A DNA stretch of 35,716 nt from a virus (Duplodnaviria > Caudoviricetes), in the IMG/VR virus record IMGVR_UViG_3300020045_003981, positions 1-35,716 of that record; one strand, given 5' to 3'. The notes under the pieces are model-generated. The model ran no database searches, was not told where the DNA came from, and saw nothing but the letters and a program-made list of their open reading frames with translations. The translations under genes and the position numbers were made by a program. Of the stretch, positions 8,360-28,730 are shown piece after piece; the stretch's first letter is position 1; the number at the start of each line of letters is the position of its first letter.

Positions 8360-8376
8360 CTCATGGAGGTTTGCCC

Positions 8377-10311
8377 ATGAGTTTAACCCGCGATTTACGT
8401 TTCAACGCCGCCACCAAAGCTGCCGAGCATAAAGACGGCGACGATCTGGTAGTCGAAATGTCTTTTGCCTCTGATGTCCCATACGAACGCTGGTGGGGTA
8501 TCGAGATTCTCGACTGTTCAGAAAAAGCGGTCGACTTGTCGCGCATGAACGATGGCGGCGCGCTACTTTACAACCACGATTGGGACGCCCTGCGCGGCCA
8601 TCACATCCCCGGCACTGTCCGTTGCGATGCCGATGGCGTTGTGCGTGGCGACGTTGCGATTGCCTGGGCCGCTGATGACGGCAAAACCGTCAAGCTCGTT
8701 CAAGGCGGACACCTCACCAAGACATCAACCGGCTACGAAATCCAAGAGATTATCGAAAAGTCGGGCAGCAAATCACGAACCCTGGATGGCCAATTGTTCG
8801 ACCGTGTGTTGACGCGCAGTAACGCAGATGCACATGGCGATGTGGTCGCCTTCCGGCGCGCGCTAGATGCCGCCGCCGGAAAATTTGAACGGGCCGCCGA
8901 AGAGAAAACCACCTACGTCGTCACACGTTGGAACATTCTCGAAAACAGCCTGGTCACCATTCCCGCCGATACCACGACCGGATTGGGCCGCAGCATCGCA
9001 TCCAACCCCATCACGACCCCATCCATTCAGGAGATTAAAGCTATGACTGAACAAGTCACCCAGCCGGTCGACGTTGCCGCTATTGAGCGCGCCGCCACCG
9101 ACAAAGCCAACAAGCGCACGGTCGACATCCTCGCCCTTGCTGAATCATTCAAAGACTACGCTGACGTTCGCGCCATGGCCGAAGCTGCCATCCGCAGCGG
9201 CCAGCCCGCCGCCGACTTCACCGCTGACCTGCTCAAGCACGTTGGCGAGAAGTCCAAAAAGGTCGATATGAACATCGGCATGAACGGCAAAGAAGCAAAG
9301 CAGTTCTCGGTCATCAAGGCATTGCGTGCCATGACCGAAGGCGACTGGTCCAAGGCTGGTCTGGAGCGCGAAGCATCGCAAGCCATCGCTGAGAAGATTC
9401 GCGGCATGGGCGTTGAACGTGCCGGATCAGGTCGCGGCTTCTTCATCCCGCTTGAAGTACAGCAACGCGATATGTTGGTCGCCACCGCTGCCAACGGCGG
9501 CAACATGGTCGCCACCAACCTGCGCCCGCAAGACTTCATCGGCATGCTGCGCAATCGCACGCTGGCAACCCAGCTTGGTGTTCGCACGCTGTCTGGTCTG
9601 GTTGGCAACGCTGACATCACCCGCCAAACCGCAGGCGCCACCGCTTACTGGCTGGCCTCTGAATCCACCGCTATCACCGAGTCACAGCAGACCATCGGCC
9701 TGTTGCAACTGCGTCCGAACAACCTCGGCGCTTACACCGAAGTTACCCGCCAGTTGATGTTGCAATCCACCCCGGATGCAGACAGCTTCGTCATGGGCGA
9801 TCTGGCCGCACAGCTTGCTGTCGCCATCGACGCCGCCATCTTCGCCGGTACCGGCACCGAGCAGCCGCAGGGCATCATCGGCACCGCCAGCGTCGGCGCA
9901 GTTACCGGCACCACGCTTGGATTGGCTGGCCTGATCGAAGCACAGACGGACGTTGCCGGTGCCAACGCGCTTACCGCCAACTGCCGCTACGTCACCACCC
10001 CGGCTGTTGCTGGCCTGCTCTCGCAGCGCGCCCGCATCGCTTCGACCGACTCCAAAACCCTCTGGAATGGCAACATTCTCGACGGCGTGGTGGAAGGCTA
10101 CAGCGCCCACTCAAGTAACAACATAACTGCTGCCACCGCCATTTTCGGTGACTTCAGCCAGGCAATTCTGGCCGAATGGGGTGTGCTTGAGGTTGATGTC
10201 AATCCTTACGCCAACTTCGCCGCCGGCATCACTGGCATCCGCGCCTTCTACACCTGCGACGTTGGTGTGCGAGTTCCGGGCGCCTTCTCGGTCATCGGCT
10301 CCATCACTTAA
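8377..10311 (+). CDS. prohead protease (HK97/U35-type) - major capsid protein fusion
   Basis: GGAGGT SD at 8365; protease motifs LLYNHD, TSTGY and ENSLVTIPAD; capsid motifs GFFIP, AYWLASE, IFGDFSQ and DVGVR. Confidence 0.95.
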   Translation: MSLTRDLRFNAATKAAEHKDGDDLVVEMSFASDVPYERWWGIEILDCSEKAVDLSRMNDGGALLYNHDWDALRGHHIPGTVRCDADGVVRGDVAIAWAADDGKTVKLVQGGHLTKTSTGYEIQEIIEKSGSKSRTLDGQLFDRVLTRSNADAHGDVVAFRRALDAAAGKFERAAEEKTTYVVTRWNILENSLVTIPADTTTGLGRSIASNPITTPSIQEIKAMTEQVTQPVDVAAIERAATDKANKRTVDILALAESFKDYADVRAMAEAAIRSGQPAADFTADLLKHVGEKSKKVDMNIGMNGKEAKQFSVIKALRAMTEGDWSKAGLEREASQAIAEKIRGMGVERAGSGRGFFIPLEVQQRDMLVATAANGGNMVATNLRPQDFIGMLRNRTLATQLGVRTLSGLVGNADITRQTAGATAYWLASESTAITESQQTIGLLQLRPNNLGAYTEVTRQLMLQSTPDADSFVMGDLAAQLAVAIDAAIFAGTGTEQPQGIIGTASVGAVTGTTLGLAGLIEAQTDVAGANALTANCRYVTTPAVAGLLSQRARIASTDSKTLWNGNILDGVVEGYSAHSSNNITAATAIFGDFSQAILAEWGVLEVDVNPYANFAAGITGIRAFYTCDVGVRVPGAFSVIGSIT

Positions 10312-15995: not shown

Positions 15996-16402
15996 CCGGC
16001 GCCGACATCGTTACCGAAGCCCGCCGGCACCTCGGCACAAAGTTCGTCCATCAGGGCCGCGTGCCTGGCCTTGCGCTCGATTGCGCCGGTCTGGTGGTGG
16101 TCGTCGCCAAAGCCTGCGGCGTTGAAATCATGGACGCCAAGGGCTATGGGCGAAACCCAAACGGCGCGCTTGAAGCCGTTATCGCTGCTCAGTCGTGCGT
16201 TGATCTGGTGCCTGTTGCGGATCGCCAGCCAGGCGACGTTTTGACCATGCGCTTTGGCCGTGAAATGCAGCACCTCGCCATTTTCGCAGGCGATACGATC
16301 ATTCACAGCTATGAGGCCGCCGGCAAGGTTTGCGAGCATACGCTTGACGCCATGTGGGCCAAACGCATCGTCAGCGCTTATCGCTTCAAGGGGCTGGCAT
16401 GA
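15992..16402 (+). CDS. NlpC/P60 tail-associated peptidase
   Basis: ARRHLGTKFVHQGR, LDCAGL, HLAI and IIHS motifs. Confidence 0.93.
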   Translation: MTGADIVTEARRHLGTKFVHQGRVPGLALDCAGLVVVVAKACGVEIMDAKGYGRNPNGALEAVIAAQSCVDLVPVADRQPGDVLTMRFGREMQHLAIFAGDTIIHSYEAAGKVCEHTLDAMWAKRIVSAYRFKGLA

Positions 16403-19400
16403 GTAGCAACTACACCACCGGCCAATGGGTTGGCACCATTGTTGGCGCCGTCGTTGGCTTTTACACCGGCGGTGCTGGATGGGTTGCAGCCGGGGCGGCG
16501 CTCGGCGGTGCGGTTGGTGGGGCAATAGACCCGCCAAAAGGCCCGAAGATTGTCGGCCCGCGCCTCAATGATCTAACTCAGCAAACAGCCAGCTACGGCG
16601 CTGCCATTCCTCGTCTGTACGGCGCTACCGCAGTCATGGGCAACATCTTCTGGATTGAGAATAACGCGCTCAAGGAAACCACGACCACCGAAGGCGGCGG
16701 CGGCAAGGGCGGAGGAAGTGAGCCAGAAACCACTACTTACAGCTATTCAGCAACATTTGCCCTGGGCCTGTGCGAAGGCCCGATAACCGGCATCAAGCGC
16801 ATCTGGATCAGCGGCAAGCTGATCTATAACTCAGGCTCGGCAGATTCCGGCACGCTCGTTGCCAGCGGTGCGGCGGCGGATCGATTCCGCGTCTATACCG
16901 GCGCAGAAGATCAACAGCCAGACCCGCGTATGCAAGCCGCGCTTGGCGCTGCAAATACCCCGGCTTATCGCGGTCTGGCCTACATCGTTTTTGATGATCT
17001 TGAGTTAGCGGACTACGGCAACACGCTTCTCGGCGCTCAAATAAAAGTTGAGGTTGTCGGCATTGGCGCCATTGATGCGCCAACGGTTGTTTCACGCAAC
17101 ACCGTTGCCGGAGCCGTGTCGGGCGGAGTGGCTTATAGCTCCACGGCTACCTACCTTTCGCCATCTGGAGAGCTTGCCATTTATCGCGTCGATGGCGATT
17201 ACAGCGTCGAATCAAACCCTACTGACTTGGTGCGAACCTATCCGGACGCCAGCGGCATCGTCACAAAGTCCGAAGGCAACATGGCTGGCATGCACATTCA
17301 GGGGTGGACGGACACACCCGGATTTGCATTTCTTCGCCCGTTTTATTCCGGATACTGGATTGAGCTAGTCGAAGGCGATTTTGATTCGCTCCATAATTTT
17401 GAGGCAACTGATTTCACGCTGATGTCGAAGTATTACCGGCGCGATCGAGAAGAAATTTACATTTCTGTTGCTGCGGTAAAAACCACGGTATTCGACGCAT
17501 CCGGCACTATCCCGCAGCCGTTACTCGTCACAACGCCGGCAAGCACTTACGGCATTGTTCATGATATTTTCATTGGCGAATCGGTCAATTACTCAATCAA
17601 TATTGGCACCTCAAATCAATTCTTTGTCTGCTATGACAGGGATTGGGCTGTGCAATGGACGGTATCCATTCCGCTCGATGTTTGCCCGATGGAAAACAAC
17701 ATCGGCGGCAATGTTGCAAAAATACGAGAGAGGATCAACGGCCATTGTGTCGTCAAGGCAAATGAACTATTCCTTGAAGTCACACAAAGCGGGTATGTGG
17801 TATTGCCAAGCACTACGGGCGGAACATTCACTGGCTATGGCGATTTTGGCGGGCAACACTTGCTTGGGAATCTGTGGATAACCTACATTGCCAATTCAAA
17901 CGAAATATCCGTTGTCAATCTCTACCCGCTATCTGCCTCGCTGCCAACGCTGGCCAGCATCATCACCGCCGAATGCCTCGCCACTAACATCCTCACAGCG
18001 CCGGATATTGATGTCACCACCCTGACGGATGAAGTACGCGGCTACAAGATTTCAAGCGTTGCCGCGATCCGTTCAAGTCTTGACCCGTTGCAGGGTGCCT
18101 GGCCTTTCGACGTTGTTCAATCCGGCTACAAAATATCATTCAAGCGCCGGGGCGGTAGCGTTGTTGCCACCATCCCGGCATCTGATCTCGGCGCAGGCGC
18201 AGAAGGCGAAGCGCTGCCAGCACGCTTTACCGAATCACGCGACATGGCAACGCAGCTACCCGCCCGCGTCACGATCCGGCACATGGACATCAGCCGCGAA
18301 TACGACATCGGCGAGCAGTACGCCGAGCGCCTCAATACCGGATCGGTCGACGTTCGCTCAATCGAAATGCCCATCGTACTGACGGCGCAAGAGGCCGTGC
18401 AAAAAGCTGAAATCCTGATTTACATGTATTGGCTGGAGCGTTACGACGTTTCTTTTACCTTGCCGCCAACCTACGCCGGCCTTGAGCCTGCGGACGTAGT
18501 AACGATTGAGGCCGAGTCAGGCACCTATGAGCTACGCCTGACCAGCGTCAACTACCAATCAAACGGCATTATCGAGTGTACCGGCAAATTCAACCGCGCC
18601 GCGGTCTATGCCAGTGCAGCCACCACCGATGGCGGCACGATACCGGACGGCATCATTACCCTACCAGTGCCAAGCGGCTACGCCCTGCTTGATATTCCAT
18701 TGCTTGATGACGATTACGACACCGGCGGCTTTACGGTCGCCATGTGCGGCCTGACGGCAGGCTGGAAGGGCGGCTCAATCTTCCGCTCGTCGGACGGCCA
18801 AACATGGCGCCTGATTAACGGATTCCGCATCCAGTCCGTCATTGGCAGGGCCATCAACAGCATCGGCGCACCGCTTGAGCATCGCCTGATCGACAAGGCC
18901 AGCATCCTGAATGTTTCCCTGCTCGGCGGCGAAGCGCTCTCAAGCGTGACCGAACCGCAAATGCTCAACGGTGCCAACCATTTCGCTTACGGTGTCGATG
19001 GCCGGTGGGAAATCATCGCCGCGCAAAATTGCGAGCTACAAATTGACGGCACCTATCTGCTGACCGATCTGCTACGCGGTCGCGCCGGATCTGAATGGGC
19101 CATGGGGCTGCATGAAATAGGCGATACCGTGGTGCTGATGGATGCCGCACGCTTGCAGTTTTCCTCGGCCAACTTGAATCAAATCGGCTTGACGCTGGAT
19201 TATCGCGGCGTCACCGCCGGCCAAACCATCGCCAGCGACCGTTCGCACCCATTCACGTACCGCGCCGTCAATCTGGAGTGCCTGGCGCCGGTCTATCTCA
19301 ACGGCAACCGCGATCCGGCAACAAACGACTGGTCGCTTGAGTGGGTGCGCCGTACCCGCGTTGGTGGCGAGTGGCGCGATTACGTTGATGCGACGCTTGG

Positions 19401-19608
19401 CGAAACAGCCGAATCCTACGAAATCGACATCATGGACGGCGCAGCGGTCAAGCGGACCTTGACGGCCAGCACGCCAGCAGTGGCCTACACCAGCGCCCAA
19501 CAAGTAACGGACTTTGGCAGCGATCAGGCCACGCTCTCACTCAATATTTATCAGCTATCGAGCACAGTTGGCAGGGGCTACCCGCTGGCGGCAACCATCA
19601 CGAGGTAA
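16399..19608 (+). CDS. central tail tip / host-specificity protein (GTA megatron-like)
   Basis: ATG 16399 overlaps previous stop; GPRLNDL, YGAAIPRLYG, PAYRGLAYIVF, LLRGRAGSE and QLSSTVGRG motifs. Confidence 0.92.
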   Translation: MSSNYTTGQWVGTIVGAVVGFYTGGAGWVAAGAALGGAVGGAIDPPKGPKIVGPRLNDLTQQTASYGAAIPRLYGATAVMGNIFWIENNALKETTTTEGGGGKGGGSEPETTTYSYSATFALGLCEGPITGIKRIWISGKLIYNSGSADSGTLVASGAAADRFRVYTGAEDQQPDPRMQAALGAANTPAYRGLAYIVFDDLELADYGNTLLGAQIKVEVVGIGAIDAPTVVSRNTVAGAVSGGVAYSSTATYLSPSGELAIYRVDGDYSVESNPTDLVRTYPDASGIVTKSEGNMAGMHIQGWTDTPGFAFLRPFYSGYWIELVEGDFDSLHNFEATDFTLMSKYYRRDREEIYISVAAVKTTVFDASGTIPQPLLVTTPASTYGIVHDIFIGESVNYSINIGTSNQFFVCYDRDWAVQWTVSIPLDVCPMENNIGGNVAKIRERINGHCVVKANELFLEVTQSGYVVLPSTTGGTFTGYGDFGGQHLLGNLWITYIANSNEISVVNLYPLSASLPTLASIITAECLATNILTAPDIDVTTLTDEVRGYKISSVAAIRSSLDPLQGAWPFDVVQSGYKISFKRRGGSVVATIPASDLGAGAEGEALPARFTESRDMATQLPARVTIRHMDISREYDIGEQYAERLNTGSVDVRSIEMPIVLTAQEAVQKAEILIYMYWLERYDVSFTLPPTYAGLEPADVVTIEAESGTYELRLTSVNYQSNGIIECTGKFNRAAVYASAATTDGGTIPDGIITLPVPSGYALLDIPLLDDDYDTGGFTVAMCGLTAGWKGGSIFRSSDGQTWRLINGFRIQSVIGRAINSIGAPLEHRLIDKASILNVSLLGGEALSSVTEPQMLNGANHFAYGVDGRWEIIAAQNCELQIDGTYLLTDLLRGRAGSEWAMGLHEIGDTVVLMDAARLQFSSANLNQIGLTLDYRGVTAGQTIASDRSHPFTYRAVNLECLAPVYLNGNRDPATNDWSLEWVRRTRVGGEWRDYVDATLGETAESYEIDIMDGAAVKRTLTASTPAVAYTSAQQVTDFGSDQATLSLNIYQLSSTVGRGYPLAATITR

Positions 19609-26591: not shown

Positions 26592-26912
26592 CTATTCCTC
26601 CGATTCGACTAGCGGCACTTCTGGAATGCCTGACATCTTCAAGTAGATTGAACTGTGGCCGTTCTTTCGAGCATCCTTCGCAACCCAGTTCATGTACTTG
26701 TCCACATTCACACCGCCATGTTCTGCACACTGCGCCAGCGCCCGGTAGTGATCGAACACGCAATGCCCGATGCTCTGTGCCGAAGTGCAAAAACCATCGT
26801 CGCTATATTGAAACGAAGCAAACATTGGAACGCCTTCGCGCTGGCAAACTTCCAGCAGTTGCGTCATCAGCGGGGCAATCTGCTCGTCGTAAATCTGTTC
26901 TTTGTTAATCAT
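26592..26912 (-). CDS. hypothetical protein
   Basis: KEQIYDEQIAPLMTQLLEVC motif; GGAGG SD; ATGA coupling. Confidence 0.75.
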   Translation of the reverse strand: MINKEQIYDEQIAPLMTQLLEVCQREGVPMFASFQYSDDGFCTSAQSIGHCVFDHYRALAQCAEHGGVNVDKYMNWVAKDARKNGHSSIYLKMSGIPEVPLVESEE

Positions 26913-27310
26913 GCAGCCTCCCGTAACCCAAGCTGGTCCAGTTCAATCGCAACAAGCTCGGTCGCTACGGCATCCTTCATGCGCGGGATCGTGATCTTTA
27001 CCAGCGCATCCTCGCAATGGTTGAGCGTGCGCAGGGCGTCATCTATTTCGCGCTGCGTCAGCATCACGCCGTTGGCCAGGCGCTTGCGTAGGCGGTCGAG
27101 TGGTGTCAGGTCGATGGCGATGGCGAGGCGTTCAAGGAGGGCAATGAAGCCTTCCAGACATTGATCAGTGCGTTCGTAGCTGTCGAAGGCGTGCAGCCGC
27201 GTAACGGCAAATCCCTGGATGCTGTCGCATTCGCCCGTTTTCATTTCGGCGAAACAGTCGCGGACAGGTTTCAGCCACTGGCAGGCTTGACGGCGGGTTA
27301 GGCGTTTCAT
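26909..27310 (-). CDS. hypothetical protein
   Basis: start overlaps the stop of the MTase beta frame. Confidence 0.75.
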   Translation of the reverse strand: MKRLTRRQACQWLKPVRDCFAEMKTGECDSIQGFAVTRLHAFDSYERTDQCLEGFIALLERLAIAIDLTPLDRLRKRLANGVMLTQREIDDALRTLNHCEDALVKITIPRMKDAVATELVAIELDQLGLREAA

Positions 27311-28314
27311 TGTTCAGCCTCGCAATAAATTGAATGCTGTTGCTGCCACTCGCGGAACTTGTCCGTTTCCAATGGCTTTAATGCGGTTTGACCTATCGGC
27401 CACCCCATAAGCCACTCGACCCAATACGGGTTCAGGCGCATCGGCGGGGTCTGCTGGCCAGGCTGGAAAGATTCCCGTTCTACCGTGTAATCCAGCCGGT
27501 CGTCCGTGCTTGCGCGGTTGTGATTCGGCGACCATCCTTTGTAAGCTGTCGCTGTCGCTGTCGGGTAGGTCTTTGCATGAACGGCTGCGGTCAACGGCAT
27601 TCCACCCTGCGAATATCGCTTGGTTCTTTCCGTCTTGCTGTCGACCGTTGGTGTCGGCCAGTTCGCAACAAATGTGGCCAGCCCATCCCCGCTGTTCTTG
27701 CTTGCTCCTTTGCGGTTGTAATTCCCGCAAACTGTCGGCGTTGGGATTAATACTTGCGCTGATAGCTTCGGTTCTCCCCGGCTGTTCCATTTGCCATTTG
27801 CTCTGTTCACGTGATCGTCTGCTACGGGCGTCTGCCAAAATCCACACGCGCTCACGTTTGTGAGCTGCGCCGGTATCGGCTGCGGATACAACTCCCCATC
27901 TAGCATCAAACCCCATCGCGGCAAGGTCACACAGTACCCGGTCAAGTCCTCTAGTAACGAGAGCTGGGCTGTTTTCAATGAATGCGTATCGGGGCTGTAC
28001 TTCGCCAATAATCCTTGCCATTTCTGACCATAGCCCTGACCTTGCGCCGTCCAATCCTGCGCCGCTTCCTGCGACGCTGATGTCCTGGCAAGGGAATCCG
28101 CCGCAAACCACGTCAACAATTCCGCGCCACTGGTTTCCGTCAAAGGTGCGCACGTCATCCCAAATCGGGAAAGGCGGGAAGGTTCCATCGTTTTGTCGTG
28201 CAACAAGGATGGCTTGCGCGTAAGGCTCTCGTTCAACGGCACACACGCACTTATGTCCGAGCAGGTGTCCGCCAAGTATGCCGCCGCCAGCGCCTGCGAA
28301 TAGATGAAGCTCAT
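27307..28314 (-). CDS. overprinted C5-MTase beta polypeptide (TRD-like repeats and motif IX)
   Basis: 335-aa stop-free second frame; RLNPYWVEWLMGWP matches motif IX; four xPTP...LxxxV repeats; start and stop both coupled to neighbouring genes. Confidence 0.85.
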   Translation of the reverse strand: MSFIYSQALAAAYLADTCSDISACVPLNESLTRKPSLLHDKTMEPSRLSRFGMTCAPLTETSGAELLTWFAADSLARTSASQEAAQDWTAQGQGYGQKWQGLLAKYSPDTHSLKTAQLSLLEDLTGYCVTLPRWGLMLDGELYPQPIPAQLTNVSACGFWQTPVADDHVNRANGKWNSRGEPKLSAQVLIPTPTVCGNYNRKGASKNSGDGLATFVANWPTPTVDSKTERTKRYSQGGMPLTAAVHAKTYPTATATAYKGWSPNHNRASTDDRLDYTVERESFQPGQQTPPMRLNPYWVEWLMGWPIGQTALKPLETDKFREWQQQHSIYCEAEQ

Positions 28315-28318
28315 TCAC
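27314..28318 (-). CDS. DNA (cytosine-5)-methyltransferase, alpha polypeptide (motifs I-VIII and X)
   Basis: LFAGAGG (I), GGFPCQDIS (IV), ENS (VI), HKRERVWI (VIII), IKAIGNGQVP (X); no motif IX; GTG start 28318 with GGAG SD. Confidence 0.92.
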   Translation of the reverse strand: MNELHLFAGAGGGILGGHLLGHKCVCAVEREPYAQAILVARQNDGTFPPFPIWDDVRTFDGNQWRGIVDVVCGGFPCQDISVAGSGAGLDGARSGLWSEMARIIGEVQPRYAFIENSPALVTRGLDRVLCDLAAMGFDARWGVVSAADTGAAHKRERVWILADARSRRSREQSKWQMEQPGRTEAISASINPNADSLRELQPQRSKQEQRGWAGHICCELADTNGRQQDGKNQAIFAGWNAVDRSRSCKDLPDSDSDSLQRMVAESQPRKHGRPAGLHGRTGIFPAWPADPADAPEPVLGRVAYGVADRSNRIKAIGNGQVPRVAATAFNLLRG

Positions 28319-28730
28319 GCCACACTCCAATAAGCCAGCCGAGTCGTTTTAGTCGCCCGCCGCACCTTCTTGATGATCTTGCCGTCGCTTTGCAACTGGC
28401 GCAGGTGGTGACAGATCATGTTTTTGGTAGCGTCGGGTTCGCCCTTGGTGACGATATCGCAAATGTCATCGGTCGAAATGCCGCGCTTGCTGGACTTGAC
28501 GATCTCAAGCACCGTTTCGATACGGCGCAGGCCGGCTTCTTTGCGCGGGTTCGTCGGCTTGCGCTTGTTGTCGCAGGCCGGCTTCTTTGCGCGGGTTCGT
28601 CGGCTTGCGCTTGTTGTCGCAGGCCGGCTTCTTTGCGCGGGTTCGTCGGCTTGCGCTTGTTGTCGCAGGCCGGAAGCAATCCCCAAAAGGATGGGGTCGT
28701 GATTTGTTGGATCATTACGGATAGGCTCAT
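28315..28730 (-). pseudogene. winged-helix protein gene frameshifted by repeat expansion (107 aa if one repeat unit)
   Basis: ATG 28730 coupled to upstream stop; removing two 46-bp units joins MSLSVMIQ...PRKEAGLR to RIETVLEIV...HHLRQLQSDGKI...YWSVA. Confidence 0.75.
28526..28673. repeat. perfect tandem repeat, 3 x 46 bp plus 10 bp
   Basis: unit CGCAGGCCGGCTTCTTTGCGCGGGTTCGTCGGCTTGCGCTTGTTGT at 28526, 28572 and 28618; partial unit at 28664. Confidence 0.98.

Follow-up and report, generated by a model that had tools for sequence, protein, structure and literature searches.

The window analysed here is the whole of virus record IMGVR_UViG_3300020045_003981 (35,716 bases, completeness 94%). Pfam-type family matches identify terminase, portal, capsid, tail, integrase and repressor-like genes, and by this gene content the record is a temperate tailed phage. 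A single 646-aa ORF at 8371–10311 joins a prohead protease-like region to the major capsid protein, and a tail protein at 16354–19608 carries Phage-tail_3 and Rcc01698-like domains (compare gene-transfer-agent-type tails). The methyltransferase locus is in the minus-strand early region, with the integrase on one side and the repressor-like gene on the other. Two frames, alpha and beta, are open here on the same strand over about 1 kb, beta at the +1 offset (Table 1), and the coordinates, motif positions and starts agree with those claimed in an earlier sequence-only reading.

Table 1. Features of the two-frame methyltransferase locus, in positions of the window.
Feature	Position	Strand	Basis
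GGAG ribosome-binding site, likely common to both starts	28325..28328	(-)	sequence; family spacing
Double start GTGAATG, with the GTG of alpha, a TGA in the frame of beta and the ATG of beta	28312..28318	(-)	sequence and family
Alpha ORF (334 aa), catalytic chain of the C5-MTase with motifs I, IV, VI, VIII and X	27314..28318	(-)	sequence, PF00145, phrog_363
Beta ORF in the +1 frame (335 aa), with a predicted docking N-part, modules 1 to 4 and motif IX	27307..28314	(-)	sequence, phrog_1008, co-fold
Alpha motifs I to VIII, with beta residues 5-158 over the same bases	27842..28300	(-)	family alignment
Conserved beta hairpin (residues 128-145) with predicted pairing to alpha strand 138-142	27880..27933	(-)	model and relatives
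Beta module 1, type C	27748..27837	(-)	module clustering
Beta module 2, type A	27661..27747	(-)	module clustering
Beta module 3, type D	27568..27660	(-)	module clustering
Beta module 4, type H, end approximate	27460..27567	(-)	module clustering
Alpha residues 185-282, predicted disordered linker over the beta modules	27474..27766	(-)	model and codon variability
Beta motif IX-like block; conserved alpha residues leading to motif X on the same bases	27385..27438	(-)	profile
Alpha motif X core GNGQV	27356..27370	(-)	family alignment
Upstream gene, broken by a 46-bp perfect repeat (28526-28673)	28315..28730	(-)	sequence
Downstream gene of 133 aa without a family match above cut-off; its ATG overlaps the beta stop	26909..27310	(-)	family searches

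I gathered related loci in three sets of 80: viral loci found with beta, viral loci found with alpha, and genome loci found with a beta alignment. Both frames are intact at the +1 offset in 77 of the alpha-found viral loci, 74 of the beta-found viral loci and 65 of the genome loci. The rest of the 240 comprise 10 with a stop in alpha and an intact beta (six of these stop right after motif VIII), four with a stop in beta and an intact alpha (two of these stop within the first 40 codons), five that are frameshifted and five that were not evaluable. The loci are related and 22 of 161 viral entries are duplicates left in for the 240-locus counts, which are not independent. For finer tests, the 122 intact loci among 134 unique evaluable viral loci were reduced to 90 representatives below 80% beta identity, including the record. 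Among the 122 intact loci, 4 have a run of 8–10 G just after alpha motif IV, and in L016, which is frameshifted, the run is 11 G long; many short beta fragments of 84–89 aa (P0170, P0171, P0173, P0180, P0182 and P0192) end at the glycine run at this same place. Slipped-strand switching of both frames could account for this, as could a sequencing error.

Alpha has the motifs of a C5-methyltransferase (C5-MTase), with motif I at 28300, IV at 28096, VI (ENS) at 27976, VIII at 27862 and X at 27370. It matches phrog_363 over residues 3–330, and PF00145 over residues 4–203 only (E 2e-33). Motif I (FxGxG, SAM binding) begins at residue 7, and its F7, G9 and G11 are invariant in the 90 representatives, as are P76 and C77 (motif IV), E115 and N116 (motif VI), R155 and R157 (motif VIII), and G317 and N318 (motif X). 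Alpha aligns to M.HhaI over motifs I–VIII, and its model superposes on that structure at ~3 Å rmsd over 170 columns. Residues 185–282 are predicted with pLDDT below 50, and the stretch from motif VIII to motif X is neither ordered in the model nor conserved in the family alignment. This matches the proposal, made from sequence, of a chain with an unstructured variable region and no motif IX.

In the record, the +1 frame has no stops over the alpha core, where 4.6 are expected given the alpha residues, and the alpha frame has none over the variable region, where 7.5 are expected given the beta residues; the third frame has 12 stops over the core. The two open frames are not there by chance. Synonymous shuffling of 88 of the 90 representatives gave 390.5 expected beta-frame stops over the alpha core and 427.5 expected alpha-frame stops over the modules, with none seen in either case, and 683 stops against 500 expected in the third frame. 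Because that set was pre-filtered for intact frames, the fair figure comes from the unique alpha-found loci with motif VIII: all 59 have zero +1 stops over motifs I–VIII, against about 4.4 expected in each. Stops in the beta frame, which would have spoken against a translated beta, are not frequent in homologues. Ordinary single-chain C5-MTases have a mean of 7.0 stops in their +1 frame, and none of 22 is free of them.

Codon variation also changes frame along the gene. The most variable position is the alpha third over residues 1–160 and the beta third over the modules, while over the motif IX and X stretch both frames are tight. Constrained synonymous sites, expected of a doubly used sequence, are found in alpha, where several four-fold sites are nearly fixed (G136 in 90/90, V68 in 80/82, P51 in 82/90, also A10 and G11), and half of the glycine codons in the alpha core are GGA, read as Glu/Asp in beta, against 17% in flanking genes. 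Much of beta 1–160 varies freely, with many four-fold sites near saturation, but sites 9, 10, 40, 49 and 50 are constrained. On these comparisons the double frame is real and strongly selected, and the layout is kept in most of the related phage and prophage genes examined, where it is usually annotated as a single gene.

The two starts lie 6 and 10 nt behind the same GGAG, and the suggestion that they share it finds support in the family. A start codon stands 4 nt after the alpha start in 86 of the 90 representatives (82 ATG, 4 GTG); in the remaining four, an in-frame ATG lies slightly upstream. AAT occupies codon 2 of alpha in 79 representatives and AAC is absent there, against an AAT share of 34% in flanking genes, and where it encodes His or Arg the variants CAT and CGT retain the beta start. 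A Shine-Dalgarno match of at least 4 bases precedes 52 of the 77 loci with both starts. Its median spacing is 4 nt to alpha and 8 nt to beta, straddling the 6 nt of flanking ORFs (216/503), which fits one ribosome-binding site for both starts, in a test inflated by sequence kinship. Such a site might also set the stoichiometry of the chains, as the sequence-only reading supposed.

The neighbouring genes bear out the sequence-only reading in part. The central TGA of GTGAATG, taken there as the stop of the upstream gene, does end a 151-codon ORF (28770–28315) in the record. However, this ORF contains a perfect 46-bp tandem repeat of 3.2 copies, because of which the likeliest start, ATG 28730, is out of frame with that TGA, and reading from it stops at 28416 in the present sequence. 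The repeat is either an assembly artefact or a real expansion, and among contigs of relatives from sequencing runs (shares 0.05–0.07) none covers it. Across the family, upstream ORFs of at least 50 aa terminate at this TGA in 51 of 112 loci. On the other side, beta had been described as the frame wired into the operon, and in the record its stop does overlap the next ATG; but in the representatives the next start overlaps the alpha stop more often (37/90) than the beta stop (16/90), so beta is not specially wired in. A PADLOC search of six neighbours gave no endonuclease match, though a novel nuclease is possible; an adjacent cognate endonuclease, as in type II restriction-modification, was thus not found among these six, whereas M.EcoHK31I has a cognate endonuclease.

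Beta matches phrog_1008, labelled DNA methyltransferase (E 8e-23). It has no Pfam match, and none of the 90 members matches PF00145 at E up to 1. Sequence and profile searches of solved structures returned nothing credible, Foldseek of its low-confidence model gave no PDB match and two viral matches (E <0.001, TM ~0.15), profile comparison with two single-chain enzymes gave no significant match, and the ESM Atlas returned unnamed clusters only. Modelled by itself, beta is poor (pTM 0.30), with most module residues at low confidence. By exact look-up in a protein collection, beta is the only chain of the record on file, unnamed, and alpha is absent with either of two starts, much as had been foreseen for gene callers, which would report one frame.

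The motif IX that alpha lacks can nevertheless be placed in the full-length beta. Single-chain enzymes were obtained from 24 of 35 loci, and 15 of them had a motif IX placeable by the pattern used. The profile of a 17-residue beta block ranks the canonical motif IX first in 10 of these 15, and at rank 9 or better in all 15. This bears on the reading in which alpha alone is the enzyme and beta a regulator or by-product. While the absence of Pfam or structural matches to beta and its poor stand-alone model would suit that reading, it is opposed by the IX block itself, by selection over the VIII–X stretch, which acts on beta, and by the lack of anything ordered or conserved in alpha over that stretch, and I regard it as highly improbable.

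The motifs stand in canonical order along the DNA, and a single polypeptide could in principle arise if ribosomes moved into the +1 frame after motif VIII and returned by a −1 shift ahead of motif X; single-chain forms do exist in the family, as in Batiatus gp66. However, the span from IX to X is 21.7 codons in all 90 representatives, against 29–34 in the 15 canonical enzymes, both frames are conserved over the same IX–X bases, and a −1 slippery heptamer occurs in that stretch in 0 of 90. Such a double frameshift would also leave the conserved beta start and the stop-free alpha tether unexplained. A beta N-part persists in the +1 frame of Batiatus gp66, which seems to be a derived form with re-fused chains. 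I therefore give this reading very little credence.

Two separate chains would have to associate. Alpha and beta co-fold with a score of 0.85, the best control reaching 0.00; the mark used is attained by 116 of 157 solved pairs but by 2 of 215 mismatched ones. Agreement of contacts between runs is 60% or more, and partner pLDDT is 54 or higher. The surest predicted contacts pair beta 134–138 with alpha 138–142, and beta 296–310 with alpha 312–322; beta 1–12 and 67–75 are also predicted to touch alpha. Halves of a split enzyme can pass through their likeness to solved single-chain MTases, and for this reason the model supports, rather than demonstrates, alpha-beta binding. A heterodimer, as first proposed, appears likely on this model, and it may be an obligate one.

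The N-terminus of beta decides a further question. In a two-chain enzyme, the working beta might not need its first 50 residues, or might begin internally, at Met43 or Met53, making it an ordinary nested beta like that of M.EcoHK31I. In-frame ATGs recur at these two places, the betas of Che9d and ShroomBoi begin at the Met53 equivalent, two of the four beta stops among the 240 loci fall within the first 40 codons, and internal starts are suspected for the M.EcoHK31I beta itself (PMC2836561). Against this, the +4 start is retained in its 86 of 90 representatives even when alpha residue 2 changes, beta has constrained sites at 9, 10, 40, 49 and 50, and beta 1–12 is within the predicted interface. 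An internal start is therefore unlikely, and a full-length beta is preferred.

Between the positions of motifs VIII and IX, where canonical enzymes have their target-recognition domain (TRD), beta carries one to four WPTP-type modules of ~30 residues. The record has the architecture C-A-D-H. From the 90 betas 212 modules were cut, 142 of which fall into 18 recurring types and 70 into smaller clusters, in 62 distinct architectures; these counts are approximate, some cuts being mis-anchored. The same module types turn up, well conserved, in distant genes and at changing positions, and they are scattered on the tree (type A with 28 carriers and 21 changes, type D with 13 carriers and 12 changes), as counted on a FastTree tree without a shuffled-label control. 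By these comparisons the modules are tandem, exchangeable cassettes shuffled among phages, a feature that the sequence-only reading overlooked.

From their position and a weak motif likeness, the modules are likely target-recognition units. The likeness is to the canonical Thr-Leu motif. In a weak and partly circular test, this motif was the best window for the modules in 1 of 15 canonical enzymes and ranked 1–39 in 13 of 15, while a 12-residue module profile mostly lands on an FP-type stretch after motif VIII. It is quite conceivable, though not what I favour, that DNA is read by the last module only, the others serving as spacers or passengers, and that the two-chain enzyme thus has one target: besides these two results, the low model confidence of most module residues and the 10 of 90 betas with one module point that way. 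The conservation, changing positions and scatter of the module types speak for several recognition units instead, as do the TRD arrays of Bacillus phage enzymes (PMC12707154).

Of 7,997 candidates scored with the beta profile, 7,314 match, and clusters at 50% identity number 7,160 at E up to 1e-30 and 24,199 at 1e-10. The named hosts are mostly Proteobacteria, plus others. In all layouts of relatives beta is at the +1 offset. An internal beta start with motif X in alpha is found in Che9d, ShroomBoi and a Methanomethylovorans plasmid. In L212, L215 and L245, alpha ends after motif VIII and the full-length beta frame also carries the modules, the IX block and motif X. In the six loci with an alpha stop right after motif VIII (L009, L182, L188, L239, L241 and L244), the alpha frame opens again at a possible start and continues as far as motif X; from sequence, these are possibly broken genes or a three-piece enzyme. 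This variety suggests that the alpha middle is a mere tether and that splits move by frameshift. These other splits of the same gene were likewise missed by the sequence-only reading, whose interpretation as a whole is supported in part.

Some members came to light as side observations. Cultured mycobacteriophages ShroomBoi (gene 71, L162) and Che9d (gene 80, L163) have an unannotated nested beta of 198 aa, and unannotated +1 beta frames lie in genes annotated as dcm-like of the archaeal Methanomethylovorans plasmid (L178, 1498–2037) and of a Nostoc plasmid (L179, 1299–2054). Small plasmid enzymes examined from E. coli and E. fergusonii are single-chain. Polka14 gp75 and Batiatus gp66 were considered as ancestral single chains and rejected, their +1 frames retaining the beta N-part.

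I propose that ribosomes at one Shine-Dalgarno site, placed between two optima, feed both starts, giving alpha, with the SAM-binding and catalytic motifs, and beta, with motif IX and likely DNA recognition, as the parts of one enzyme. By sequence and model, alpha has the catalytic large domain followed by a disordered tether to motif X. The beta N-terminal helix, the 128–145 hairpin and motif IX are predicted to dock on alpha, with motif IX against motif X. The one to four tandem modules would probably recognise several targets, and their shuffling in multiples of three bases would keep both frames open. From its context, the enzyme may methylate phage DNA in lytic growth and so serve antirestriction. 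As to origin, each frame may be the older one over the stretches with its own motifs, and overprinted over the rest.

Should both chains be produced, thousands of 'hypothetical proteins' of phages (the 7,160 clusters above) would be methyltransferase subunits, and many phage methyltransferases may have been missed or cloned incomplete because a single frame was called. The family also forms a natural series in which to follow how two halves of an enzyme come to overlap along their whole length on the same strand. Its two-start ribosome-binding site lends itself to testing, and its modules may amount to a library of short DNA-recognition units that can be swapped, of use in engineering split methyltransferases like those built on M.EcoHK31I. 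A bolder and tentative reading, which I think doubtful, is of an unannotated and very large phage antirestriction system: a cassette-programmed multispecific MTase, with its specificity chain overprinted on the catalytic gene behind one ribosome-binding site, 30-residue modules shuffled between phages, and a moving split point. Were it true, each module would have one target and module type would give the motif as a readable code, betas might swap between co-infecting phages, and the chain split would move in evolution through two-chain, AquI-like, three-piece and re-fused forms.

A literature search, to which most subscription journals were out of reach, returned no paper on two-frame phage C5-MTases and none describing the actinophage 'DNA methylase' pairs as subunits; the accessible parts of PMC2884959, PMC9030533 and PMC8227390 do not mention the layout. 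Three known systems share features with the locus. According to PMC12707154, temperate Bacillus phages array several TRDs in one C5-MTase chain for antirestriction. Like the present locus, these are orphan phage enzymes with a unit array between motifs VIII and IX, and their antirestriction role is the one presumed for the locus, but they are single polypeptides in one frame, and the modules gave no significant sequence match.

M.AquI (CYCGRG) is described in PMC3404938 as a two-chain C5-MTase split after motif VIII. The phage locus is likewise split there, with the distal variable region and motif IX on the second chain, but motif X, on the second chain in M.AquI, is here on alpha. The AquI-like layout does occur within the close family, by sequence, in L212, L215 and L245, and also in GenBank actinophage pairs (Gladiator 87/86, Ruin 79/78, Vagabond 6/5, Camperdownii 76/75, ArV1 067a/067b), both frames of which are annotated as methylases. 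These pairs share the +1 offset, a hairpin homologous to beta 128–145, the modules and the IX block, and differ in that they overlap partially and that their second frame carries motif X. Modules, IX block and motif X share one frame in each of Gladiator gp86, Ruin gp78, Vagabond gp5 and Camperdownii gp75.

M.EcoHK31I (YGGCCR) is, according to PMC2836561 and PMC3404938, an alpha/beta C5-MTase whose beta is nested in another frame of alpha and carries motif IX; activity needs both chains, and association needs the beta N-terminus (PMC2836561). Compared by described layout rather than by sequence, both systems have two chains in overlapping frames of one gene, with motifs I–VIII and X on alpha and IX as the sole motif of beta, which here is found at the sequence level. 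The M.EcoHK31I beta is smaller and wholly inside alpha, whereas the phage beta, at full length, ends 7 nt past alpha in a near-total overlap; and the TRD is assigned to alpha in M.EcoHK31I, whereas the phage alpha has an unconserved, predicted disordered variable region and the likely recognition part is in beta. Starts 4 nt apart, tandem modules in beta and the lack of an endonuclease among six neighbours further set the phage locus apart. Because two M.EcoHK31I features differ, I place the locus beside that system rather than within it, though the two would work alike. With translation and activity as predictions from sequence, co-fold model and precedent, the locus very probably encodes a two-chain orphan C5-MTase that works like M.EcoHK31I, in full overlap and with shuffled, likely target-recognition modules in beta.
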